A stretch of 63,863 bases of DNA, filler included, from Chiloscyllium plagiosum (lineage: Eukaryota): assembly GCF_004010195.1 (NCBI RefSeq). It is 7 parts of 7 records of this genome, joined end to end, with 100 filler letters (N's around TTAATTAATTAA, not from the genome) between each part and the next. Parts side by side here need not be neighbours in the genome. Positions count along the whole stretch, not along the records: positions 18,853 to 49,509 come from NC_057757.1; 6 more parts are not named here. One strand, written 5' to 3'. Below are positions 16,490-62,339 of this stretch, in pieces. The position numbers and the translations under genes are program-made. The stretch's first letter is position 1, and each line of letters starts with the position of its first letter. Under the pieces are notes generated by a model that saw nothing but the letters and a program-made list of their open reading frames with translations, searched no databases and had not been told where the DNA came from.

Positions 16490-16828
16490 ATAATTGCATC
16501 ATGGCACGGACTTCGTGGATAGCAGCGCTGTCTGGAGAGACAGTGAGCCTGGGATGTGAGATTCAAAATAGTTCAGATCTGCTGTACTGGTTTGTGCAAT
16601 TTCCCAGCCAGTCTCCAACTTCACTGTTATATCACCATCGCACCGGCATCACCGCCACTTACTTTAATGGTTTCGGGTCTCGTTTCTCTCCCTCGTTTGA
16701 TTCATCCACTCAAAGCTCTCAGCTAAGGATCACAAATGTCAGTGTTTCAGACACTGGGAACTACTACTGTGCTTTCAGAGTACACGGTGAGATGAGATTC
16801 GGGACAGGAACCATGCTAACAGTAACAG
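16490..16828 (+). CDS. Single-exon, germline-joined VJ-type Ig V domain (TCR-like, non-rearranging IgSF); gene truncated by the end of the segment
   Basis: GETVSLGC-x10-WFVQ...RFS...LRITNVSVSDTGNYYC-AFRVHGEMR-FGTGTMLTVT. Acceptor tacag at 16485-16489, phase-1 donor GTAAGA at 16829. No V-J intervening DNA. Confidence 0.9.
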
Positions 16829-17329
16829 GTAAGAAAGTGACCACTCTCTCACCTGAACACAGTTTGCTCTAAAAGATTAAAATCTCCGAGGAATGTAGAC
16901 TTGAGGTAGAGAGATCTTTGAGGTGTTACAAACAGGTCCAGAAGATAATCAAGGAGATTAAGAGAATGCTGGCCTTTATTATCTTCAGTACTAAAGGCGA
17001 GAAGGTATGTTTCAATTGTACAGAGCCTGGTTAGATCATACCTGGAATCACTGTGAGCTGTTCTGGGCGCTACACCTCAGAAAGGAGATATGGATCTCAG
17101 TGGGTGCGCAGGATCTATTTACCAAGCTTATCTCCAAGACCGAATTAAGTGGAGAGATTGCACTATTGTTATGTATTGACAAAATTGTGACAATTCAGTA
17201 GGAGGTCACTTAGCCCCCTGTCTCTGTACGGGCTCTCCAAATGAGCAAATCACTCGCTGCCATTCTCCCACCTTTTTCCTGTAACCCTGCACACTCTTCT
17301 TTTATATATAACCGTCTAATTCGAGATAA

Positions 17330-18752: not shown

Positions 18753-18852
18753 NNNNNNNNNNNNNNNNNNNNNNNNNNNNNNNNNNNNNNNNNNNNTTAA
18801 TTAATTAANNNNNNNNNNNNNNNNNNNNNNNNNNNNNNNNNNNNNNNNNNNN
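18753..18852. other. Artificial contig spacer
   Basis: 44 N + TTAATTAATTAA (stops in all six frames) + 44 N. Confidence 0.97.
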
Positions 18853-22578: not shown

Positions 22579-25500
22579 CTGAACAGAGGAAAGCCTTCAT
22601 CAAACAAAAAGGGAACCTGCTGTGGGGTTCACCACTGCCCGTGACTGCTCAGGATCCTGTGGTGAACTGTTAAATTCCAGGCTAACACGATCTTGGTCGT
22701 ACACCACCCTCCCCCTTCCTCCCCGATACTCCCAGCACCAAGCTCAGAAAGAGAGAATGTTTTGACACAATGAGCACAAGACAGAGCATAGGGATTTGCT
22801 GCAGTTTAATTCATGACTGGCCACTGATAAATTAAATTCTCTCTTCGAACTGCACGAACAATCCCTTCCTTCAGGGTGAGGTGGGACTGTTTGCATCAAA
22901 CTGCTTGTTTCCAGGTCAATCAAGCTGATGTTGAACATAGTAGCGTAGAATCACAATGGATGAGAAAAATAACAAATCTGGCTGGGATAGAAATCACATG
23001 CAGATACAATTTAATCGGTAGACTTGCGAGAACATTCCAACATCAATTCAGGCCCACGAGATCTCTTGCTTGGAGGTTCTGGTTTTAGGTTATTCATCTG
23101 TAGATCTGAAAGTAGAGGAAAACCATGGGTGAGCAATGGAGATGGAGCAAGGAGATACTGGTGTGCGAAAGCTTGGCTCAGTTTGTGAAACATTAGGAAG
23201 GCGGAGAGAGAGAGAGACAGAGAGACAGAGACAGAGTGAGGGGGAGAGGAGAAGAGAGAGAGACAGAGACAGAGGGAGAGACAGAGGGGGAGGGAGAGAC
23301 AGAGANNNNNNNNNNNNNNNNNNNNNNNNNNNNNNNNNNNNNNNNNNNNNNNNNNNNNNNNNNNNNNNNNNNNNNNNAGAGAAAGACAGTGGTGGGGGTT
23401 GGGGGGTGGGGGGGGGGGGAAGAGGTTGGGCTGTTTGATTTAGAAAAGAGCAGTTCAGATCAGGATGTGGGCTGGGAAGGCAATACAGTGGTCCCTGCAA
23501 TGGATGATCCTTTTGCTGATCAGGAAACTGCTCTTCAGTCTGCCTAAGGAGGCATAGAGTGACTCGCTCTCAATCATAAAAGTCTCTGACTTTTTCATAG
23601 ACATAGAGTCATAGACACTTCATGAAAAAGAACGGCTTGCGAAAGAGGGGAAGTAAACTGGATTTCTTCGGGTTTCAAATGTTTCTTACTGCACAGTCCC
23701 TGCTTCTTCAGAGATCCAATGTTTTCTGACTAAATGTAGAACATAGAACAATACAGCGCAGAACAGGCCCTTCGGCCCTCGATGTCGTGCCGACCTGTGA
23801 ACTATTCTCAGCTTGTCCCCCTACACTATCCCAAAATAATCCGTGTGCTTATCCAAGGATTGTTTAAATCTCCCTAATGTGGCTGAGTTAAGTACATTGG
23901 CAGGTAGGGTATTCCACACCCTTACCACTCTCTGAATGAAGAACTTGCCTCTGACATCTGTCTTAAATCTATCACCCCTCAATTTGTAGTTATGCCCCCT
24001 CGTACACANNNNNNNNNNNNNNNNNNNNNNNNNNNNNNNNNNNNNNNNNNNNNNNNNNNNNNNNNNNNNNNNNNNNNNNNNNNNNNNNNNNNNNNNNNNN
24101 NNNNNNNNNNNNNNNNNNNNNNNNNNNNNNNNNNNNNNNNNNNNNNNNNNNNNNNNNNNNNNNNNNNNNNNNNNNNNNNNNNNNNNNNNNNNNNNNNNNN
24201 NNNNNNNNNNNNNNNNNNNNNNNNNNNNNNNNNNNNNNNNNNNNNNNNNNNNNNNNNNNNNNNNNNNNNNNNNNNNNNNNNNNNNNNNNNNNNNNNNNNN
24301 NNNNNNNNNNNNNNNNNNNNNNNNNNNNNNNNNNNNNNNNNNNNNNNNNNNNNNNNNNNNNNNNNNNNNNNNNNNNNNNNNNNNNNNNNNNNNNNNNNNN
24401 NNNNNNNNNNNNNNNNNNNNNNNNNNNNNNNNNNNNNNNNNNNNNNNNNNNNNNNNNNNNNNNNNNNNNNNNNNNNNNNNNNNNNNNNNNNNNNNNNNNN
24501 NNNNNNNNAGATGGAGAGGTCAACTACAAGAGGGAGCTGATTCGAGGTGTGAGGATAAAGTTTAGGGAAGAAGTGAGGGGAAAGTTTTGCACACAGAGGG
24601 TGGTGGGTGCCAATGGAGGTGGTGAATGCAGGCATGCTAGTAATGATTAAGGTGTATCTTAATGGACGCATGAACATGGACAATAAGTAATGGATCTAAA
24701 TAAGGGTTAGGAATTGGTGCAGGATTGGTGGGCCTGTTCCTGTGTTGTATTGTATTATATCAGTAAATAATTACCCTAAGATCTTTCTGTTTGTGTGAAC
24801 TACCCAGTGTCCTGCCATTCATTAGAGACTCCTTCACCTTGCTTCTTTTTTCAGAATTGAAGTATATAAAATTTTGAGGGGCATGTCAGAGTCATTCCTG
24901 ATGAAGGGCTTTTGCCCAAAAAGTCAATTTTTCTGCTCCTCAGATGCTGCCTGACCTGCTGTGCTTTTCCAGAACCACTCTAATCTCCAGCATCGGCAGT
25001 ACCCACGTTCACCTGGATAGTCAGAGTCCCTTTCCCCAGAGTGGAAATATCAAATATGAGAGGACATACCTTTAAAGAGAAGGGTGCGAGGTAGTTTAAA
25101 AGACATGTGAGAAGGAAGGCTTTTGTTCAGAGTCATGCCTGGATCATGTGACCAGGCCAGGTGATAGAAAAAGATACAATAGCAAAGTTGAAGAGGCGTT
25201 TAGACAAATGCATGACCAGGCAGGAAATTGAGAGATACCAATCATGTACAGGCAGCTGGGATTAGATTAGAATGGCAAGATGGTCAGCATTACCCACCTT
25301 TAAGACTTTCATTAGAACTGACCTAATATCTCTTTCTAGGGTTTTGAGTCAGATTTATGGAGGCTTTTTCCCTACCTCCCAGGTATGCCCTCTCATATTT
25401 GGTATTTCAACTGTGGAGATGGAGAGGTCAACTACAAGAGGGAGCTGATTCGAGGTGTGAGGATAAAGTTTAGGGAAGAAGTGAGGGGAAAGTTTTGCAC

Positions 25501-26586
25501 ACATACGGTGGTGGGTGCCAATGGAGGTGTGAATGCAGGCATGTTAGTAATGATTAAGGTGTATCTTAATGGACACATGAACATGGACAATAAGTAATGG
25601 ATCTAAATAAGGGTCTCGGGCGCTGTGAGGCAGCAGTGCTAACCACTGTTGGCTGCTTCATTACATGAAAGGCTCCACGTAAATATAGAACAAAATGAGA
25701 ACAAGGCTAAAAGAGTGACACACTGCCTCAGCTTTTCCACTTGCACTTATCTGGATACAAATGCAAGAATGCCAAATTTATGACAACAGTTTACACTGCC
25801 AAGTACTTATTGGTTTGCACTGTGGGAGGAATCCTATGCAGACATAGGAAAAACATGCAAACTCTACACAGCCAGTTGTTCAAGGATGGAATCAAATTCA
25901 GGTCCCTGGTGCTGTGTGGTAGGAGAGTTAACCATTGGGCCACCATATTTGCAGAGGCTCTGACGCCACCAATAAACTATGGGGAGCTTATAGTTCCCCC
26001 AGATGATTTCTCCCTTGGTAACGTTTCAGCCAATCACAGCCAACCCATCAACCAATCCCCAGCAACCTTTCCTCCAGTCGAAAAAATGAGGTGGTCAGAG
26101 GTGCTAGATAAACACAGTGCACTGTATCTAAAAGGGAGATGTGTTGCCTAAGCTTTTACCTCGTGCACTCATCCGGATACCAACACACGAATGCCAAATT
26201 TATGGCAACAATTCATAGTTCGGTTGGTAGGGGCAGGGAGGATGTTGCTTGGTTGGCACTTCTGCCCTGATTAGCCTGTTCCTGTGTTGTTGCTGTCTCC
26301 ACAACCTGTCCATCCTTGGGTCACCTTCTGGGGACTTACTCAAGTGAACCTGTATTGCATTTGGGTTCACTGAACTCTTGATGGCTGTAGTTTTCAGAAT
26401 TCACAGGCCCAGCGACGTGAGAGGGAGGCCATTTGGCCCAATAGCATGGTGCGTGCCCTCCTGTCAGCCCGGGCTCCATAGCACTTCACTTTCTGCTGCT
26501 TCATTCTCCCACCTCCCTCGCACCCCCCGTTACCTTCTTCTCTTTAACACATGCACGCCAATCGCTTGTGACAAGAACGCGTGTGC

Positions 26587-26592
26587 TTTATT
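26587..26592 (-). terminator. Candidate poly(A) signal of the B7-like gene
   Basis: AATAAA on the minus strand in unique sequence, ~1.2 kb past the stop codon. Confidence 0.3.
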
Positions 26593-27784
26593 TTTAGATG
26601 AGACAGACAATAGGTTTACAAACACAGTGGGTGTTGTACCACTGAGGCCAACCACTGCTACTGTAAGCAGTCATACGAGTCATGCATTATATCGAACTGT
26701 CCAATGACTGACCGCGGTTGACCCCCGAAATGTACATGCACATCGTATTGCAATATTCACCCTTTTCTCTAAACAAATAATTTACCGTTTAAATATCAAA
26801 CTCCTTGTACTATCTGAAGGCTTTTGAAGAAGCTAGCCGGTTCAAGGGTACTTAAGGATGGTGAAGCTCACCATTGGCACACAGGAAAAATTAACAGACC
26901 CTCTCTACCCATTGGCTTATCTCTCTGTCGATTTTTGATTTATTGGTTCACGGGATGTGGGCATCACAAGCTTTTTTGGCTTGTGTGAACTCAGTTGATT
27001 TGCCATACAGTTTTGTGCCAACAGTGAGGGTTCACTCCAGCTGAGATTACCACAGAACGATCTCCCGGTCTCCTCACAGGAGACATGCTGACCCTCAGGT
27101 TAAACCACCACCCAATTTTTCTTATTGCCCGCCCCTAGTTGCCCCTTGAGAAGGTGGTGGAGAGCTGCCTTCCTGAACCGCCGCTGTGGGTTGACCTGCA
27201 AATGCTCTTAGGGATGGAATTCCAGGATTTTGACAAAGTGGCACTGAAGGAAGGGGCGATATATTTCCAAGTCAGAATGGTGAGTGGCTCGGAGGGGAAC
27301 CTGCAGTGAGGTTGGTGTTTCCATGTATCTGCTGCCCCTGTCCTTCCAGATAGAAGTGGTCATGGGTTTGGAAGGTGCTGCCTGAGGATCTTTGGTGAAT
27401 TTCTGCACTGCATCTTTTAGATGGTACAAACTGCTGCTACTGAGCGTCGATTGTGGAGGGAATGGATGCTTGTGGATGGAATTAAGTCTTGGTTAACAAC
27501 TTGTGTCTTACCCCATGGTACCCAACATCCCAAATTTCATAACAACTCTCCACCCCTCCCCCCCCCCAACACTGAATGCATTCAACTCAAACAAAATCCT
27601 TTGGCTTCTTGTCTTGAATATTCTCACGACTGAACTCCCCCCAACCCACAAGCTTCAGTGGACAAGGAGAATTCTGATGCTTTAGAGGCTGTGTTCTGAG
27701 ACTCTCCAGCCAAGGCTGTGGGAGGAAGGAAGGCAGACCCCAGATGTCCGGATCACGGAAGGTGGGCTGGAGGAGGAGTGACCA

Positions 27785-27852
27785 TCATGTTAGAATCTTC
27801 ATCAGTGGTAGGAGCAAGACTGTTATCCATGTGGAGAGATGTGCATAGGCCC
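27785..27852 (-). CDS. Terminal coding exon of the B7-like gene: GPI-signal-like tail (G)AYAHLSTWITVLLLPLMKILT*
   Basis: Pyrimidine-rich acceptor ttgctttcctctttgttcaaacgtttag. The phase-1 frame gives a hydrophobic C-terminus with no cytoplasmic tail. Confidence 0.65.
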
Positions 27853-28299
27853 CTAAACGTTTGAACAAAGAGGAAAGCAAGTCTTTAGTAAGAGCAACAA
27901 TATGTACAGAAAGAATGTAAGAAAGTAGGAGCAGGCCTGAGGCCATTTGTCCCCTTCAGCCTGGTCCATAACTTCAGGACAGATTACTACTTTGAAGCCA
28001 ATGTTAAATCAGGCTTGGGTGAGACATTGCAATGTGGTAAAACCTGTTATTGGAATGCATTCATGGAGTGACAGAGTCATACAGCATGGAAACAGGTCCT
28101 TCAGCCCAACTTACCCGTGCTGACCAAGATCTTAGTGAAAAGTTCAACCTGAGCCATGTAAGGACCTAGAGGTGAAGTTATAATTCTGGATAATTAATGT
28201 CACCTACATGAACTCTCCAGAAACATGAGTCAAATCCAACAATAGCAGCTAAAGTATGTGGAGGCAAAATCCATTTTAACTTTTTTTTTCCCTCATTCT

Positions 28300-29030
28300 A
28301 TCACTGGGTGTGGATATCGCTGGCTGGGCCCAGCATTTATTGCCCATCCCTAATTGCCCCCTTTGAGAAAACAGCGGTAAGCTGTCTTCTTGAACCACTG
28401 TACACACAGTGCCATTCTGGAGTTCCAGGATTTTGACCCAGTGACATTGACGTTATATTTCCAAATCAGGATGGCGAGTGGCTTGGACGGGAACTTGTGA
28501 TAGGGTTAGGCTTAGGGTTTGGGTTAAGGTCTGGGTTAGGTTAGGGTGCAGGTGGCGGTGCTCCCATGTCCATGTCCTGACTGATATGAAGTGGTTGTGG
28601 GTTCGGAAGGTGCTGTCTGAGGATCTTTGCTGCAGTGCATCTTGTAGATGGTACAAGCTGCTGCTACTGCATGTCACTGGTGGAGGGAGTGGATGTTTGT
28701 GGATATGGTGCCAATCAAGCGGGCTGCTTTGTCTTGGATGGTGTTGAGCTTCTTGAGTATTTCTGGAGCTGTCTGTCCAGGTAAGTGAAGAGTATTCCTG
28801 CACACTCCTGACTTATGCCTTGTGGATGGTGGACTGGCTTTAGGGAGGCAGGAGGTGAGTTATATGCTGCAATATTCCTAGGCTCTGACCTGGCATTGTA
28901 GCCACTGTGTTTATCCAACTTGGCTTCTGGTCAATATTAACCTCCATGATCATATTGGTGGGAGATTCACTGATCATCTTGCCAACGAATATCAAGAGGT
29001 GATTGTTGAATTCTGCTGCTGATGGTCTCT
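28300..29030 (-). mobile_element. L2/CR1-like LINE 3' fragment (intronic)
   Basis: Same family as 11275-12385. Confidence 0.7.
28501..28547 (+). repeat. Degenerate telomere-like (TTAGGG)n insert
   Basis: tagggttaggcttagggtttgggttaaggtctgggttaggttagggt interrupts the LINE consensus seen in other copies. Confidence 0.55.
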
Positions 29031-29628
29031 GAGGTATGACAGAATAGTTCATTGGTTTAATGACTAGCATTCTGAACTTTGAATCCAGCAATCCGAGTTT
29101 GAATCTCAGTGGAACCTCAACTTGTTTTGTCCTGGCACCTGTTTAATTTGTGAGTGGCATAGTTGTTAGCCTCAGGCAACTATCTGTGCGGAGTTTGCAC
29201 GTTCTCCCCATGTCACACTGGGTTTCCTCCGGATGCTTGTGTTTCCTCCCACAGTTCAAAGATGTGGTAGGTTAAGTTAGGTGGATTGGCCATGCTAAAT
29301 TGCCCATAGTGTTACGTGCATTAGTCAGGGGAAATGTAGAGTAAATAAAGGTCCGGGTGGGTCGGTATGGACTGAATGGCCTGTTTCCACACTGTAAGGA
29401 TTCGAAGATTGCTAACCTCAGTGAAAGTGATCAGGACACTATGGAGCTTCATGCAAAACTTCACTTTCCTCTCTGATCTCTTTCACGCATGAATATTAAA
29501 TAGAGATCTGCTCTCCAACACTAAACCTCACGTCTCTTATTAAAAATAAATGCAACCTGGACCATCAGACCATCGCCTGTGGGATCTTCCAATGAACCGG
29601 TCGCCTGCTGGATTTCCCATGTTAAAAA

Positions 29629-29942
29629 GGGGAGGCGATGGGCCAATATATTGTCGCTGGACTGTTAATCCAGAGCCGCAGATAGTGTTCTGGGGAACTG
29701 AGTTCAAATCCTGCAATGGCAGATAGAGGAATTAGAATCCAATAAAGAATCTAGTGATGACCATGAATCCACTGCCACCTTTTGGGAGGATAAAAAACAT
29801 CTGGTTCACTTATGTCCTTTAGAGAAGGAAACTGCCATCCTTACCTGGTCCAGCCTACATGCCCAGACCCATAGCAATCTGGTTCACCCTTCACAGCAAT
29901 AAATGCTCACCTAGCCAGCGACACCCTCACTCCATGAATTAA
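29629..29942 (+). mobile_element. tRNA-derived SINE with a MetaSINE-like core
   Basis: B box gagttcaaatcc; core ctggttcacttatgtcctttagagaaggaaactgccatccttacctgg; tail shared with the L2-like LINE. Second copy at 37619-37945. Confidence 0.65.
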
Positions 29943-30046
29943 GGAAAGAAACAGTGACTGTATTTCAGCAAAGAGTCCTATTGACGGGTACGCTGAGGTT
30001 GGGGGTAAGGACTTATACGCTGCAACAGAATCAGAATCCTGCTTAC

Positions 30047-30406
30047 CTGAGTTCACAGTTAGCTGCAGCAAGGCACAGACAGTGGAACGTTGCTCTGCTC
30101 TCACGTAACAGGTATAGTTCCCAGAATCGGTGCTCCTCAGTTCTCGGAGCTGCAGAGTCACATTCCCCGTTTGATCCCAGTTAGGAGGGAGAGCTGTGCG
30201 GCCTTTAAAGCTGTCGTCCTGCTGTCCCTGCATCTCGCCCCCTCGCCTCTCTGCATGCACGATCAGGGGATAGTCACGATGTGCCTTTTGCCAGGACACC
30301 AACAGCTTATCGAGCTGCCCCTCGGGCCTAAAGTAACATGGCAAATAAATCGTGCCTCTCTGCATAGCCATCACGGGCTTTACATTTTCTTCACACTGTA
30401 TGGCCT
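30047..30406 (-). CDS. B7/butyrophilin-like IgV domain exon
   Basis: IYLPCYF...LLVSWQK...IVH...QQDDSFKGRTAL...GNVTLQLRELRSTDSGNYTCYV...LQLTV. 360 nt, phase 1-1, acceptor ttcctttgcag, donor GTAAGC. Confidence 0.92.
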
Positions 30407-30744
30407 CTGCAAAGGAAAGGAATAAATTCAGTCAATATTGAGGGTGCACTACTCTCAGTATAACTCCACACTATGAAAGCCCCACCTTCTTAATCTCGGC
30501 CTTTGCATGAGATATGCCGACCGTCAGAGTAAATCCATTAGCAATTGTTTCTCTCCAATGATAGAGCAGGACTATGGTCCTCTGGGACTGAGATGACTTT
30601 AGTTTTACCTTAACCCATGTCAGACTGCTTACCAATCTATCTGTCACCATGTCTAACTCTCGCTCAGGGTTTCTATCCAACTTGGTCTCACTTTCATCAA
30701 TTCCGTCTGACTCTCTACCTTCGCGCTGTTTCTCCATCAGCCTT

Positions 30745-30935
30745 TCACTCCCAGGACAGGGACAGCATGAGGTTAGAAACAGATTAGAGCTCCCTCTACA
30801 CTGCCCCTGATCAAACACTCCCCAGGACAGAGACAGCACGGTGACAGATACAGAGTAAAGCTCCCTCTACACTGACTGCCATCAAACACTCCCAGGAACA
30901 GGGACAGCACAGGGTCAGATACAGAGTAAAGCTGT
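30745..30935. repeat. ~70-bp tandem repeat (about 3 units)
   Basis: cactcccaggacagggacagcac...cagagtaaagctccctctacactg units; fragments also occur downstream of the Cmu4 and C-kappa exons. Confidence 0.75.
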
Positions 30936-31036
30936 CCACTTGCACATTTACAGGGAGCAGGAACATTCCCTGAAATGTCTTTGTGCAGTTCTCGGTTATG
31001 GGGGAAGAGAGTGGGAAGGGCAGCCATCTATCTTAC

Positions 31037-31100
31037 CTGGTAAGGAGTCTCCGACCAAGAAGAGAAGGCCGAGCATCAATCCGAAATGCATGGCAGTCAT
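31037..31100 (-). CDS. Leader exon of the B7-like gene (MTAMHFGLMLGLLFLVGDSLP)
   Basis: Signal-peptide-like, with phase-1 donor G|GTAAGA. Candidate upstream acceptor tcactttttcag (AG at 31272-31273). Confidence 0.85.
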
Positions 31101-36639: not shown

Positions 36640-37160
36640 TCTGATTTTATTAATGATTGTCAGATGTACTGAGATACAGTGAAAAGTACGGTGCTAACCA
36701 GGCAAATCATACCTTACTCAAATACATCAGGGTAATAGAATGCAGAATACAATGGTACAGCTGCAGGGAGACAAAGATCAACTCTACTATATGAGAGGTC
36801 TTTTCAAAAGTCTGATAACAACGGGGGAGAACATGTTCTTGAATCTGTTGGTACATGTTTTCAAACTTTTGTACCTTCTACCCAATGGAAGAGAATAGAA
36901 GTGCTTATAACCAGGGTGGGAGGGGTCTTTGATGACGTTAACTGCTTTTCCGAGGCAGTGGGAAGTGTGGATGCAGTCAATGGATGGGAGGCTGGTTTGT
37001 GTTATAAACTGGGCTGGGTCCACAAGTCTGTCATTTCTTCAGGTCTTTGGCAGAGCAGTCGCTATACCAAGCTGTGATGCATCCAGACAGGAGGCAATCT
37101 CTGGTGCACCTGTAAGAATCCTTGCAGGCATGCCGAATTTCTTTAGCTGTCTGAAGAAGT
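36640..37160 (-). mobile_element. Rex1/Babar-type LINE 3' fragment
   Basis: IKDPSHPGYKHFYSLPLGRRYKSLKTCTNRFKNMFSPVVIRLL; related tail at ~41060-41235. Confidence 0.7.
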
Positions 37161-49509: not shown

Positions 49510-49609
49510 NNNNNNNNNNNNNNNNNNNNNNNNNNNNNNNNNNNNNNNNNNNNTTAATTAATTAANNNNNNNNNNNNNNNNNNNNNNNNNNNNNNNNNNN
49601 NNNNNNNNN
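49510..49609. other. Artificial contig spacer
   Basis: 44 N + TTAATTAATTAA + 44 N. Confidence 0.97.
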
Positions 49610-50203
49610 AACAATGACATAAATTAGAGAATGACATCACACAAAATACGCAAAGTATTTTTGATCACGTTAAATATAATGAACAGAATTTCCATGGCTG
49701 TTCACCGCTCCTGTAACACTTTAGAACTCTGCAAAGATAATAATAATTATTTATTATAATTTGTCCAAAATTGGGATGTGATGTGGCAGTCTGTGTGACC
49801 AGCAGCACTTGCACCTAAGGGTTATGAACATGGAAATGAGCTCATTATATTCAGATTACTCTTGTCACAAGTATCAATAGATGGTCTTAAGTGAGAGACA
49901 AACTCTGAAAGAAAGGTCATTCCATGGGTTACATGATGGTATCTTCGATGATTTTACTTTTTTCACAGGTTTCACTTGTTACAAAGCCAGTGTTCTTTAG
50001 GAATAATTACACAGGGTATGTTATAGGTAATCACAAATGCTTTCACAGATCAAAATACATCAACAATAGTAAGCATCGTTTCAACAATTGTTGGAGTTGC
50101 CATTTTGAAGGTGGTGTCTTCACCCTGTGAAGGAGTAATCTGAAGATTGGCTGTTTGTATCATAAAAAGGCATTTTTCATTGACTTTGATTTTTGTTTCA
50201 TAG

Positions 50204-50512
50204 AAGATACCGAGTGCCACCCTAACATCGTTAAAATCCTCCCACCACCAGTAGAACAAGTCTTACTGGAGGCGACGGTGACGTTAACCTGCGTTGTGTC
50301 CAATCTTCCTTCTGGAGTCAACGTGACCTGGAAACAAGAAAATAAGCCTCTGAAATCAGAGATTGCTGAGCAGCCTGGACAGAATCCCGACAGCGTGATC
50401 AGCAAATTAGACATTTCTGCTGAAGCCTGGCTGAGTGGCGTTACTTTTGAATGTGTGATGTACCATCAGAATCTACCGACTCCGCTGAGAGACTCCATCC
50501 ACAAGGAGAAAG
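50204..50512 (+). CDS. IGHM: IgM heavy chain Cmu3 exon (copy 1)
   Basis: [22 protein letters not shown]...[10 protein letters not shown]...[12 protein letters not shown], typical of shark mu; tttcatag acceptor, GTGAG donor, phase 1-1. Confidence 0.92.
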
Positions 50513-50967
50513 GTGAGCGGTGAGACTAAAACACAAAGGATCCCATGTGTAATCCAGATCCAGTTACATCAATGGCTGGCTTTGATTGGGAATGAACCAA
50601 CACCGTTGGGAGCATTAATGATGCATCTGAAGGCAGGATAGCTCAGTAGAATTAAGAAAAAGATGGACCAAAGGATATTGTATTCTTATTATGTCAGGTA
50701 AACTGGGAAGAAGCCTGGGTTGTGACGTCACCATCAGCAATGACAAATGGACAGAATGCCCTCGTTGTGGGCTGGAAACATGGAGGCAACTTTCACATTA
50801 AACTTTCCTTTTTTTTACTGAACAGTATGTGTACCATACTGATCCTTTAAAAAAACGAAAGTGAATAAATCCCAAATTAAACATGGCGTATTTTAATATT
50901 TAGTGAAGTCGTGATATTGGTTCAGGATGTTTTTGGTTGATTTATATTTGTCTCAAATATTCTGCAG

Positions 50968-51359
50968 TGATTAATCCGATGGAACCATCAGTGTCGGTCC
51001 TCCTGCCACCAACAGAAGAAATCTCCGCTCAGAGGTTTCTCTCCCTCACCTGTTTAGTGAGAGGTTTCTCCCCCCGAGAGATCTTCGTCAAGTGGACAAA
51101 CAATGACAAGCCGGTGAATCCCAGTAACTACAAGAACACTGAGGTCATGGCGGAGAGCGACAACACCTCCTTCTTCATGTACAGCCTGTTATCCCTTACA
51201 GCGGAGGAGTGGGCCAGCGGTGCTTCTTACTCCTGTGTGGTGGGACATGAAGCGATTCCATTGAAGATCATCAACAGAACAGTCGATAAATCCAGCGGTA
51301 AATCGAGTTTCATAAACATTTCACTTGTACTGATGGACACTGTTAATTCATGTCAATAA
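50968..51359 (+). CDS. IGHM: IgM Cmu4 plus secretory tailpiece (copy 1)
   Basis: [17 protein letters not shown]...[17 protein letters not shown]...[14 protein letters not shown]. Internal membrane-form donor G|GTAAAT at 51298. AATAAA at 51355-51360. Confidence 0.95.
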
Positions 51360-51878: not shown

Positions 51879-51978
51879 NNNNNNNNNNNNNNNNNNNNNN
51901 NNNNNNNNNNNNNNNNNNNNNNTTAATTAATTAANNNNNNNNNNNNNNNNNNNNNNNNNNNNNNNNNNNNNNNNNNNN
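51879..51978. other. Artificial contig spacer
   Basis: 44 N + TTAATTAATTAA + 44 N. Confidence 0.97.
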
Positions 51979-52862: not shown

Positions 52863-53186
52863 GCCGTGAGAACTCCCAGCTCAAGCTGACCCTGCTGCCC
52901 ACCTCCCCGGAGCAGGTCAATGTCAAGGGCACTGCCACCCTGGTGTGCCTTGCCAATCACTTCTATCCCGATGAGCTGGAGGTGCAGTGGAAGAAGGACG
53001 GTGCAGTCATTTCGGACGGGGTTCAGACCAGCAACTACCTGCGAGCTTCGGACAGCACCTACAGTGTCAGCAGCCTGCTGACCCTCTCTGGGTCTGACTG
53101 GGCGTCCAACGCTCGCTTCTCCTGTGCCCTCACCCACGTGACCCTCCCGTCTCAGAAAGAACATCAGGAGATCAGAATGTGTGTAG
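52863..53186 (+). pseudogene. IGKC: Ig kappa (shark type III / NS4-like) light-chain C exon with a frameshift near the 3' end
   Basis: KGTATLVCLANHFYPDE...QTSNYLRASDSTYS...NARFSCALTH. The ancestral end LRKNIRRSECV* (TAG 53184-53186) is out of frame after ~53150. Confidence 0.8.
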
Positions 53187-53553
53187 ATTGTTTGAGACAG
53201 TCCACAGAGGAGACACAACTTTACTTAGAACAGGGCTGAGCTGGCAGGACAAAGGTCATTGTTAGCACTGAATTTCAACTCTCTTCCTTCTCAGAACTGC
53301 TCAGAGATATGTCTGAGGTTTGGATGTTGAAGTAGGTCACTGCGACAATGTCGAGAGACTTTACGCTATGTCAAACCTCATGCTGTCCTTGTCCGGGGAG
53401 TGTTTGATGGGGAAGTGTTGACTGTATGTCGAGTAAAATCTCTTGAAGTTGCTGAAGACTGTCAGCTACACAAAACAATGTGACCCTTAGAAGTCTCTGC
53501 TTCAGTAAACCAGACCTTTCGGGCGGCACGGTGATGCAGTGGTTAGCACTGCT

Positions 53554-53653
53554 NNNNNNNNNNNNNNNNNNNNNNNNNNNNNNNNNNNNNNNNNNNNTTA
53601 ATTAATTAANNNNNNNNNNNNNNNNNNNNNNNNNNNNNNNNNNNNNNNNNNNN
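53554..53653. other. Artificial contig spacer
   Basis: 44 N + TTAATTAATTAA + 44 N. Confidence 0.97.
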
Positions 53654-53713: not shown

Positions 53714-54169
53714 GTGAGCGGTGAGATTAAAGCACAAACGATCTCATGTGTAATCCAGATCCAGTTACATCAATGGGCAGGCTTTGATTGGTAGTGAACA
53801 AACACTGTTGGGAGCATTAATGATGCATCTGAAGGCAGGAGAGCTAAGTAGCTGATTCAGAAAAAGATGGACCAAAGGATATTGTATTCTGATTAAGTCA
53901 GATAAGGTGGGAAGAAGCCAGGGTTGTGACGCCACCATCAGCAATGACAAATGGACAGAATGCTCTTGTTGTGGGCTGGAAACTTGGAGACAACGTTCAT
54001 ATTAAACTTTCCTTTTTTTACTGAACAGTATGCGTACCATTCTGCTCCTTTAGAAAATGAAAGTGAATAAATCCCAAATTAAACATTGCGTATTTTAATA
54101 TTTAGTGAAATTGTGATATCGGTTCAGGATTTTTTTGGTTGATTTATATTTGTCTCAAAGATTCTGCAG

Positions 54170-54561
54170 TGATTAATCCGCTGGAGCCATTAGTGTCGGT
54201 CCTCCTGCCACCAACAGAAGAAATCTCCGCTCAGAGGTTTCTCTACCTCACCTGTTTAGTGAGAGGTTTCTCCCCCCGAAAGATCTTCGTCAAGTGGACA
54301 AACAATGACAAGCCGGTGAATCCCAGTCACTACAAGAACACCGAGGTGATGGCGGAGAGTGACAACACCTCCTTCTTCATCTACAGCCTGTTATCCATTA
54401 CAGCGGAGGAGTGGGCCAGCGGTGCTTCTTACTCCTGTGTGGTGGGACATGAAGCGATTCCATTGAATATCATCAACAGAACAGTCGATAAATCCAGCGG
54501 TAAACCGAGTTTTGTAAACATTTCACTTGCACTGATGGACACAGTTAATTCATGTCAATAA
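54170..54561 (+). CDS. IGHM: IgM Cmu4 plus secretory tailpiece (copy 2)
   Basis: Open frame ending [20 protein letters not shown]. Intron and 3' flank are colinear with copy 1. Confidence 0.93.
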
Positions 54562-56117: not shown

Positions 56118-56217
56118 NNNNNNNNNNNNNNNNNNNNNNNNNNNNNNNNNNNNNNNNNNNNTTAATTAATTAANNNNNNNNNNNNNNNNNNNNNNNNNNN
56201 NNNNNNNNNNNNNNNNN
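56118..56217. other. Artificial contig spacer
   Basis: 44 N + TTAATTAATTAA + 44 N. Confidence 0.97.
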
Positions 56218-56626
56218 TCTGGTCTCTGCTTCCCTCTGTCACTCTCACCCTCTCCCTGCCCCTCTCTGTCTCTCCCTCAATCATGTCTTTCTTCTTCTCT
56301 GTTTCTTTCATTCTGTTTCTCTCTCTGAGATGTGTCCAGCTGGGCTCGGGAGGTTTGTCAAATTTATTTTTTGATATTAAATCTTGCAGTCATTCTTCAC
56401 ACATGGCCATGGAGTGTAAGAGGAAAACTTGAGGCCTTCTGTGAGCGGTGGACACCACAGGGACTGGAATGTGTCGTGGACAGTGACAATCCCAGCATGG
56501 GGTAATTTGTTCAGTTTCATTTATATATTACTGTGTTTGTATCAGTTATAAGGAGGTGTGTCTATTATTATGTATAACATATAATTATGAATGTATCAGT
56601 ACAGGAGGTGGTGCTGTGTGTATTGA

Positions 56627-56654
56627 GGTTTTTGTACGGCTCTATATCACTGTG
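56627..56654 (-). other. Recombination signal sequence, 12-bp spacer
   Basis: CACAGTG atatagagccgt ACAAAAACC: consensus heptamer and nonamer. Confidence 0.97.
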
Positions 56655-56936
56655 TAGAGGGTAGCTGTTATACTGCTGACAGTAATAGTCAGCGACATCA
56701 TCATTCTGAACGTTGCTGATTGTCAGGGTGAAACTGGTCCCTGATCCACTGCCGGTGAATCGATCGGAGACTCCTGTGAATCGAGTTGCTGTATAATAGA
56801 CCAGGAGAGAGGGTTTCTGACCTTCTCGCTGCTGGTACCAGCTAACCCACTTGCTAACAGATTTACTGGCCGTACAGGTGATGGTTGAAGTCTGGCCCAG
56901 TCCCACTGACAGCACCGGGGGAGACTGGGTCATGAT
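56655..56936 (-). pseudogene. IGKV: Unrearranged Ig kappa V segment; open frame, but leader and canonical acceptor not found
   Basis: [21 protein letters not shown]...[13 protein letters not shown]...[13 protein letters not shown]...[11 protein letters not shown] followed by a 12-RSS. Confidence 0.8.
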
Positions 56937-57019
56937 GTGGCACAGACAGCCTCACAGGGAGTTAACACCTTCAATACCTTATCTGAGCCGACATGACACC
57001 AATTGTTAAAGAGAATGTA

Positions 57020-58096: not shown

Positions 58097-58196
58097 NNNN
58101 NNNNNNNNNNNNNNNNNNNNNNNNNNNNNNNNNNNNNNNNTTAATTAATTAANNNNNNNNNNNNNNNNNNNNNNNNNNNNNNNNNNNNNNNNNNNN
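58097..58196. other. Artificial contig spacer
   Basis: 44 N + TTAATTAATTAA + 44 N. Confidence 0.97.
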
Positions 58197-61005: not shown

Positions 61006-61960
61006 CAATATGGATTGCCTTGGATGTGTTTCGTGTGATAGGGGTTGTGTGTTCCGGGCATGAATGGGTGTATAGCAGGGTAGGGTTTGTCAATGTGAGT
61101 GGGAATTTAGGTCTCGACAGAGTAAGTGCAGTGGTTAGTCTGAAAGATGATGTTTGCTGGTGAACTGCGTGTCAGTTTGATAGTTATTAAAGTTAAAGAT
61201 TACTTGTTCATTTCTCAAATCATATTTACATAAATACTCAGCTGTAACACTCCAAAGTCGCTGAACCTTAATGGTCCTCCAATTTTCAGAGGCCTCCAGA
61301 ATTCAGAGAATTGTAAATGAGATGTTTCAACTTCCAGACAATTGGCAAGAGTTCAGCCGTGACAGCCATCCTCCCCGTCCCAGTGCTCAGCTCCTGCCTG
61401 TCCTGCTGCGGCAGTGACCTTGCTCCCAGAGAGAACATTCTGCCTTGCATTGATAAGTGAGGAAGGCTCACTGGACCTGATTTCCAAATATGGGGACGGC
61501 AAACACAGTCAGGGTTAACTGTAGCATAATAGGGTAGGGGAATGGGTCTGGATGCGTTACTTTTCAGAGGGTGGGTGTGGACTTGTTGGGCCAAATGGCC
61601 TGTTTGCACACACTGTAGAATTTCGATGAATCTGCATTTCCTTGGTTTGTATTTTGTGAAACTTCTCTGCTCTTCACAGCAATCCAGTGAAAGTGTCCGT
61701 TGGTGAGATCTTCAAACAGTTACTGGGGTGGGATCAGGATGTTCTTCTTCCGAAATTATATGGCAATGGTCAAGGTCGAGGGCATGTTTCTAAAGAGTGA
61801 ACCAATGATCATGATCAGCAACTGGTAGGAAACAAAAATAAACCCCAGTTATGCTGTCGACTTCAGCGGGAGCATACTGGCAAACGTTTACAGCTGAGGA
61901 TACATTTGATAAGGTCAAATTAACAGAAACTAACATGCTCAATTGGTCATTCTGTTGTAG

Positions 61961-62266
61961 AGACACCATCTCCCCCCACGCTTTATGGCCTGGTCTCCTC
62001 CTGTCAGGAACACAACACCGGTTCTGCAATCTTTGGTTGTTTGGCGATGGACTATTCCCCTGACGTCACGAAAGTAACCTGGAAGAAAGGTGGGGAGCTA
62101 ATCACGACTGGATTGAAGACTTACCCATCAGTGAAAAACAAGAAGGGAACCTACACCCTGAGCAGCCAGTTAACCCTGCCCGAGTCAGCGGTAGGTTGCC
62201 CCAGCAAAATCTACTGTGAGGTTCAACACAGCGGGTCACACAAGAGCAAAGAAATGCCATGTCCAG
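61961..62266 (+). CDS. IGHM: IgM heavy chain Cmu1 exon
   Basis: [15 protein letters not shown]...[11 protein letters not shown]...WKK...[24 protein letters not shown]...IYCEVQH...MPCP. 306 nt, phase 1-1, tgttgtag acceptor, GTACGT donor. Confidence 0.93.
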
Positions 62267-62339
62267 GTACGTGTTGTGGGAACTGAGATAAACAGAGCAT
62301 CTGGGATTAATATGAATAAGGCATTATTTATAACCGTTT

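Follow-up and report, generated by a model that had tools for sequence, protein, structure and literature searches.

A predicted GPI-anchored, single V domain of the B7/butyrophilin type conserved among sharks

Introduction

Can a variable-type immunoglobulin (IgV) domain of the B7/butyrophilin (BTN) type serve without the constant-type (IgC) domain, transmembrane (TM) helix and cytoplasmic tail of its classical relatives? The question is raised by a gene in a 63,863-nt stretch of DNA from the bamboo shark Chiloscyllium plagiosum (NCBI RefSeq assembly GCF_004010195.1), called the window here. The window joins seven pieces end to end, and the gene lies on the minus strand of a 30.6-kb piece at 18853-49509. 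An original prediction, made from the sequence alone, described a complete gene for a single-IgV, probably glycosylphosphatidylinositol (GPI)-anchored protein with an extra disulfide. The analysis indicates a conserved, fast-evolving shark variant of the B7/BTN superfamily that is annotated and apparently unstudied.

Gene structure and domain type

Three exons of 64, 360 and 68 nt (Table 1) form a coding sequence of 492 nt with GT-AG intron ends and both introns in phase 1. The resulting protein of 163 residues agrees with the original reading, and the model is confirmed by its splice sites and by letter identity with RefSeq XP_043539611.1 (stored as P0001), 'myelin-oligodendrocyte glycoprotein-like' of the same species. 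Both introns have CAG/GTAAG donors and pyrimidine-rich AG acceptors. The exon joins are read from genomic sequence and gene models, not from RNA reads; a word search of the run archive gave no match recorded as RNA and four guessed-RNA runs with 0.12-0.17 of the words, which counts as no evidence.

The first exon has a strong hydrophobic core (Kyte-Doolittle 11-residue mean 2.72), and the signal peptide would be cleaved near residues 21/22. The protein carries cysteines at residues 26, 45, 121 and 132, of which C26 (A strand) and C132 (G strand) are additional to the canonical pair, and the two N-glycosylation sequons foreseen for it stand at N103 and N118; all are encoded by exon 2, which ends at the candidate omega residues N140-S141. 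The third exon follows with small residues, a short spacer, about 13 hydrophobic residues and a stop. Tails of distant relatives match it by tblastn in four of five cases at E<1 and three of five at E<0.05: Stegostoma at 78% (E 9e-5), Heterodontus at 62% (E 0.003), Heptranchias at 44% (E 0.049) and Scyliorhinus at E 0.48, with no match for Mustelus. Because these tails are conserved and exon 3 is the first of 70 downstream phase-1 acceptors to yield a short hydrophobic terminal peptide, its choice is judged to be more than chance.

Exon 2 matches the Pfam V-set (E 4.8e-8), and a search of NCBIfam gave no match. Both phmmer and the profile search rank B7-H3, B7-H4, MOG and BTN at the top among solved structures, bearing out the B7/butyrophilin-like V domain originally proposed. 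The profile scores are 56.7 bits for MOG, ∼55 for BTN3A, 52.5 for a single B7-H3 V domain, 50 for BTN2A1, 48.7 for B7-H4, 46.7 for CAR and 43 for PD-L1; the 100.7 bits of four-Ig B7-H3 come from two domains. By sequence, the V domain is of the B7/BTN/MOG type, tied among MOG, BTN3A, B7-H3 and B7-H4, with no assignable orthologue. The J-type G-x-G motif expected of the VJ-type domains of UrIg or NKp30 is absent from the G strand, residues 128-140 holding no glycine in the window protein, and C132-A133 occupy its place in 10/10 relatives. An AlphaFold model built from nine sequences gives an IgV fold (pLDDT 78.5, pTM 0.68).

A family conserved among sharks

Ten full-length relatives of 162-181 residues were found in nine shark species, which we take to represent four orders: two Chiloscyllium, Hemiscyllium, Rhincodon, Stegostoma, Heterodontus, Heptranchias, Scyliorhinus and Mustelus, the last with two copies. 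All ten begin with a signal peptide, carry a single V domain and finish with a tail that runs 24-28 residues past the last strand and fits a GPI signal. The RefSeq records are XP_043539611.1, XP_072447375.1, XP_060710793-5.1, XP_020392472.1, XP_048380300.1, XP_067879632.1, XP_067828264.1, XP_078061827.1, XP_078061640.1 and XP_072349651.1, under automatic and inconsistent names (MOG-like, CD276-like, nectin-2-like). The counts omit four redundant or partial records (P0002, P0005, P0006, P0084). Two of these (P0005, P0084) are GCC/GCB GenBank records, presumably from an annotation pipeline other than RefSeq's, and have the same V-to-tail junction.

The family made up 3/15, 12/7667 and 9/3622 candidates in word-index searches limited to proteins of 65-293 residues. 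A word-free search gave 1881 matches; among the best 150, five single-domain proteins exceed 40% identity and all are 142-165 residues long. No ray, chimaera or bony-fish member appeared in the length-limited searches or in those best 150, which is weak evidence of absence. The ESM Atlas holds clusters of B7-like V proteins of 150-205 residues in other chordates (tails not compared), so the single-V build may not be specific to sharks.

The V domain appears to diverge rapidly. The two nearest relatives are 89 and 84% identical to the window protein in this domain, the whale and zebra shark members 63-64% and the more distant ones 40-50%, whereas a similarity above 80%, a rough yardstick, is quoted for Ig/TCR C domains in part of PMC12227049. 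The N118 sequon is kept in 8/10 relatives and N103 in 7/10, with one to six sequons per member. The gene is duplicated in Mustelus and elsewhere mostly single-copy among the records found.

The phylogeny proposed as a check separates the family as a single branch (support 98/99), with long branches meeting at the base, and assigns no orthologue. Its 66 rows comprise the 10 family members, the best-matching domains from the 40 top-ranked proteins outside the family and every domain with an A-G cysteine pair. The family appears to be its own clade in this tree, which holds no named human B7 sequences; its members are at most putative one-to-one orthologues of one another.

Absence of a C domain and a transmembrane segment

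The original prediction saw no C-domain exon in intron 2 and no cytoplasmic tail, and both absences hold. A comparison with 182 stored Ig proteins and four C1 exons revealed no Ig match outside exons 2-3 and no C-domain exon in the intron or elsewhere in the 30.6-kb piece, and no TM exon was found in that piece. A second match at 36844-37114 was rejected as an Ig exon, being the retroelement-like tail of P0104, and an Ig-like regular-expression match at 22648-22228 was rejected for lack of tblastn support. The IgC domain that follows IgV in classical B7 proteins is missing from the piece and from 10/10 full-length relatives, as are their type I TM helix and cytoplasmic tail: every protein ends at its hydrophobic stretch. 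The TM and cytoplasmic region of butyrophilins and MOG (B30.2, heptads or the second hydrophobic segment of MOG) is likewise lacking.

It is very improbable that the three-exon model is incomplete and the true transcript encodes a V-C-TM protein of the B7/BTN kind. The exon joins rest on sequence, a gap of 500 N lies at 24009-24508, the piece ends 9 kb downstream and gene models may share errors. Against this, 10/10 full-length models from nine genomes share one ending, exon 3 is conserved, the piece holds no C exon, and the five single-domain matches of the word-free search are all short. No V-C-TM relative turned up, although no dedicated search of longer proteins was made. Beside the gap, a block of ∼190 nt is duplicated at 24510-24700 and 25418-25610, a possible assembly overlap.

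The C-terminal tail

A GPI signal, as described in part of PMC7125958, combines an N-terminal signal with a C-terminal signal of 20-30 residues whose hydrophobic part is roughly 20 residues long. All ten relatives have this overall arrangement, with nothing after the hydrophobic end and with small omega and omega+2 residues 20-27 residues from the end, which supports the single V domain with a GPI-type tail originally proposed. In the ESM Atlas, Thy-1 clusters make up 5/30 matches of the full protein, the best at 0.91 with 165 of 256 features shared, just under the guide of 170. No Thy-1 clusters are listed for the V exon alone, so this likeness comes from the ends of the protein. GPI anchoring, with transfer at N140 or S141, is predicted with good confidence.

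An uncleaved C-terminal membrane anchor without a cytoplasmic part, or a mostly secreted protein, is the unlikely alternative for this tail. We take such an anchor to have been argued for B7-H4; GPI claims for B7-H4 and teleost CD80/86 were not confirmed by the literature search. The AlphaFold model places a helix at 147-162, but at low confidence (pLDDT 55-60). The best 19-residue hydropathy of the tails spans 1.04-1.78, at or below 1.58 in 9/10. The values of 1.58 in whale shark and 1.78 in zebra shark would suit a membrane anchor, as tail-less isoform models would suit secretion, while the 1.04-1.26 of four distant members is too weak for a stable TM helix and the small omega triad is present in 10/10.

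The extra cysteine pair

Cysteines 26, 45, 121 and 132 are invariant in 10/10 relatives. In the AlphaFold model, C26 belongs to the opening strand (24-26) and C132 to the final one (128-140); strands 117-125 and 128-140 form the F-G hairpin around a turn of two residues. In the inferred register, C132 would face C121 at a position that packs on an A-strand residue. In antibody V domains the packing partner of this G-strand position is A-strand residue 4, here C26. A C26-C132 disulfide is thus likely. The Heptranchias and Heterodontus members (P0053, P0065) have seven to eight cysteines in total, some in the tail spacer and one beside the G-strand cysteine.

The original prediction of extra A- and G-strand cysteines stands, although the pair is not unique to this gene. 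Among 358 non-family domains, 10 carry both an A-strand cysteine and a cysteine 11 residues after the F-strand cysteine, 22 the former only, none the latter only and 326 neither. The carriers are teleost BTNL2/CD276-like proteins (P0011, P0036, P0039, P0063, P0064, P0148, P0172, P0175). The A-G pair is probably convergent because they sit on a separate branch of the tree, whose own support is only 90/82.

Comparison with known proteins

By sequence, the shark V-set domain has its best matches among solved structures in the IgV domains of B7-H3/CD276, B7-H4/VTCN1, BTN3A/BTN2A1 and MOG; unlike these proteins, it comes without IgC, TM segment, cytoplasmic tail or B30.2 and has the A-G cysteine pair. 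Thy-1/CD90 likewise combines a single V-type domain with the lack of an intracellular part, and has the GPI anchor that is predicted for the shark protein (part of PMC6497726), and a single V domain with a GPI-type signal in its own last exon is what the features of the shark gene present. The shark domain differs in its B7/BTN-type sequence, its C-strand Trp and its spacing of 76 residues between the B- and F-strand cysteines. In Thy-1 this spacing is shorter, and the second disulfide joins A' to a C-terminal cysteine. No Thy-1 is among the sequence matches listed, and no direct alignment to Thy-1 was made. The gene is probably not Thy-1 because another gene of C. plagiosum, LOC122541132, bears the name thy-1-like. 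The Thy-1 comparison of the original prediction therefore holds for the format and not for the V domain, which scores with B7/BTN/MOG.

As good a precedent for this format is CD160, an immune co-signalling protein whose single IgV domain is GPI-anchored; it has splice isoforms and two disulfides, the second of which (Cys35-Cys42) lies inside the domain, in contrast with the A-G pair of the shark protein (part of PMC6355189). CD160 is absent from the sequence matches listed; neither it nor Thy-1 is among the fold matches listed, which excludes nothing. Teleost 'BTNL2-like/CD276-like' proteins (XP_047242614.1, XP_041841755.1, XP_029932724.1) share the A-strand cysteine and the cysteine 11 residues after that of the F strand, but are multi-V, multi-domain proteins on their own branch. 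By its sequence features, the shark protein is a B7/BTN-type domain in a Thy-1/CD160 format and departs from classical B7 and BTN/MOG in lacking IgC and a TM segment with tail.

The original prediction raised the possibility of an undescribed protein. The gene is already in RefSeq for nine sharks under automatic names, and no paper on it was found. As for a known orthologue of the same architecture, a RefSeq model exists and no named orthologue is assigned. The literature search found no paper on the gene and none citing six family accessions, with most subscription immunology journals outside its coverage; the parts seen of PMC10751288 and PMC6795676 mention no such gene under the terms searched.

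Proposed function

The favoured reading, to which we assign a probability of about 0.5, is that the protein is a GPI-anchored single B7/BTN V domain, likely a ligand in trans for an Ig-type receptor on immune cells. It starts from the observed exon structure, V-set domain and family conservation, and from a piece in which no exon for a C domain or TM segment was found. The signal peptide would be removed and the chain transferred to GPI as predicted above, and the second disulfide would pin the first and last strands together, stabilising a domain without a partner C domain. Having no cytoplasmic tail, the protein could not signal itself and would therefore engage a receptor in trans, through its GFCC' face. 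Phospholipase shedding and tail-less splice forms may add soluble decoys. Amid the fast overall divergence, all ten relatives share Q61 and R124, and nine share R128; canonical topology would place these residues on the GFCC' face. Sharks have many CD28-family receptors with largely unassigned ligands, according to part of PMC11599192, and chondrichthyan members of that family are candidate partners.

Several points weigh against the favoured reading. With ∼13 residues, the hydrophobic stretch falls short of the roughly 20 given in PMC7125958, and omega sits right where the last strand ends. GPI anchoring was assessed not with a GPI predictor but by a rule of our own, set after the family had been seen, that passes 10/10 members and 3/168 other stored Ig proteins, a background of mostly fragments and TM proteins. 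The C26-C132 pairing is judged from strand positions, as the model came without coordinates for an S-S distance, and the 10 co-occurring domains come from eight related, non-independent teleost proteins. Two of three epaulette-shark isoform models (X2, X3) stop one or two residues past the domain; lacking the tail, these forms would be secreted. The ligand role is a prediction; the gene name is absent among the listed entries of the bamboo-shark single-cell marker table in part of PMC11372145. The fold search with the model does not single out B7: CAR (Z 16.2, rmsd 2.0, 112 aligned), B7-H6 (15.9, 2.1, 113), B7-H3 (15.6, 1.8, 110), VSIG4 (15.4) and nectin-3 (15.4) tie.

A side observation concerns read-through and tail-less forms. 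At 29907-30046 (minus strand) the reading frame of exon 2 continues past its donor for 46 intron 2 codons without a stop and has a weakly hydrophobic end. Several intron 2 acceptors would yield tail-less forms resembling the epaulette-shark X3 model.

The fold search bears on a serious rival, possible rather than probable, in which the same GPI-anchored V domain is an adhesion or raft molecule that resembles Thy-1, CAR or MOG and is carried by neural, epithelial or red cells, instead of a lymphocyte co-signal. In fold, CAR, nectin-3, VSIG4 and P0 score level with the B7 members or just behind them, MOG is the top single-domain profile match, and Thy-1, in the same format, acts through cis and trans partners (part of PMC6497726). 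In the profile search, CAR nevertheless trails the B7/BTN domains by as much as 10 bits. V identity of 40-50% between orders and the Mustelus duplication also speak against adhesion, since fast divergence and duplication are more typical of immune genes.

Fast divergence, a variable N-glycan load and predicted soluble forms would also fit a sheddable surface decoy or pathogen receptor, its evolution driven by microbes and not by a host receptor. This seems quite unlikely, as the invariant Q61 and R124, if on the front face, suggest a conserved partner, and the gene is mostly single-copy among the records found.

Features of the window

The gene is the only source of Ig exons found in its piece. 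Identical 100-nt spacers (44 N, 12 nt, 44 N) join the seven pieces, each of which has an Ig-superfamily exon. The spacers look artificial, so adjacency across pieces is meaningless and no linkage to Ig/TCR genes is claimed. The Ig/TCR exons of the other pieces are reminiscent of the shark antigen-receptor complex (parts of PMC12227049 and PMC7677710). Linkage of the gene to that complex was set aside: the joins look artificial, the gene is absent from Table S1 of PMC12227049, and the gene names and accessions searched for are absent from the supplements of that paper. The V exon that runs into a J-type motif may be germline-joined or a non-rearranging VJ exon (UrIg2/NKp30/TCR-like).

Table 1. 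Positions of gene parts and other features in the window
Feature	Position	Strand	Description
Exon 1, coding part	31037..31100	-	64 nt; ATG and signal peptide, residues 1-21
Intron 1	30407..31036	-	630 nt; GT-AG, phase 1
71-nt tandem repeat	30746-30933		within intron 1
Exon 2	30047..30406	-	360 nt; B7/BTN-type IgV, residues 22-141; canonical C45/W60/C121
Intron 2	27853..30046	-	2194 nt; GT-AG, phase 1; repeat-rich (42% by self-match within the window)
Exon 3, coding part	27785..27852	-	68 nt including TGA; 22-residue GPI-type signal
Two candidate AATAAA polyadenylation signals	start 26944 and 26592 (span 26587..26944)	-	sequence motif
Spacers between pieces	18753-18852, 49510-49609, 51879-51978, 53554-53653, 56118-56217, 58097-58196		100 nt each
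V exon, other piece	16490-16829	+	unbroken into J-type F-G-x-G and splice donor; V-set E 1.3e-15
C1-set exons	50131-51359 and 54109-54561	+	two near-identical copies, last exon with secretory-type tail; presumably IgNAR-like
C1 exon	52863-53190	+	Ig light-chain-like; last codons seemingly out of frame; pseudogene or assembly error
V exon	56568-56951	-	kappa-like (isotype name assumed); seemingly unrearranged
C1 exon	61924-62286	+	CH1-like (isotype name assumed)

Significance

In its widest form, which we propose tentatively and regard as doubtful, the family would be a shark-wide unnamed branch of the B7/butyrophilins: a minimal, GPI-anchored, disulfide-stapled V domain with soluble splice forms, acting as ligand or decoy for an orphan chondrichthyan CD28-family receptor or for gamma-delta TCR V domains. 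If this were true, co-signalling could run without IgC, TM segment or tail. Novelty is limited in that gene models already exist and neither the B7/BTN type of domain nor the Thy-1/CD160 format is new. As a natural feature that seems to have evolved twice in fish, the A-G cysteine pair may serve as a model for stabilising lone V domains. A small, conserved and easily expressed B7-type domain would also be a direct bait for CD28-type receptor-ligand pairs of sharks (part of PMC11599192).

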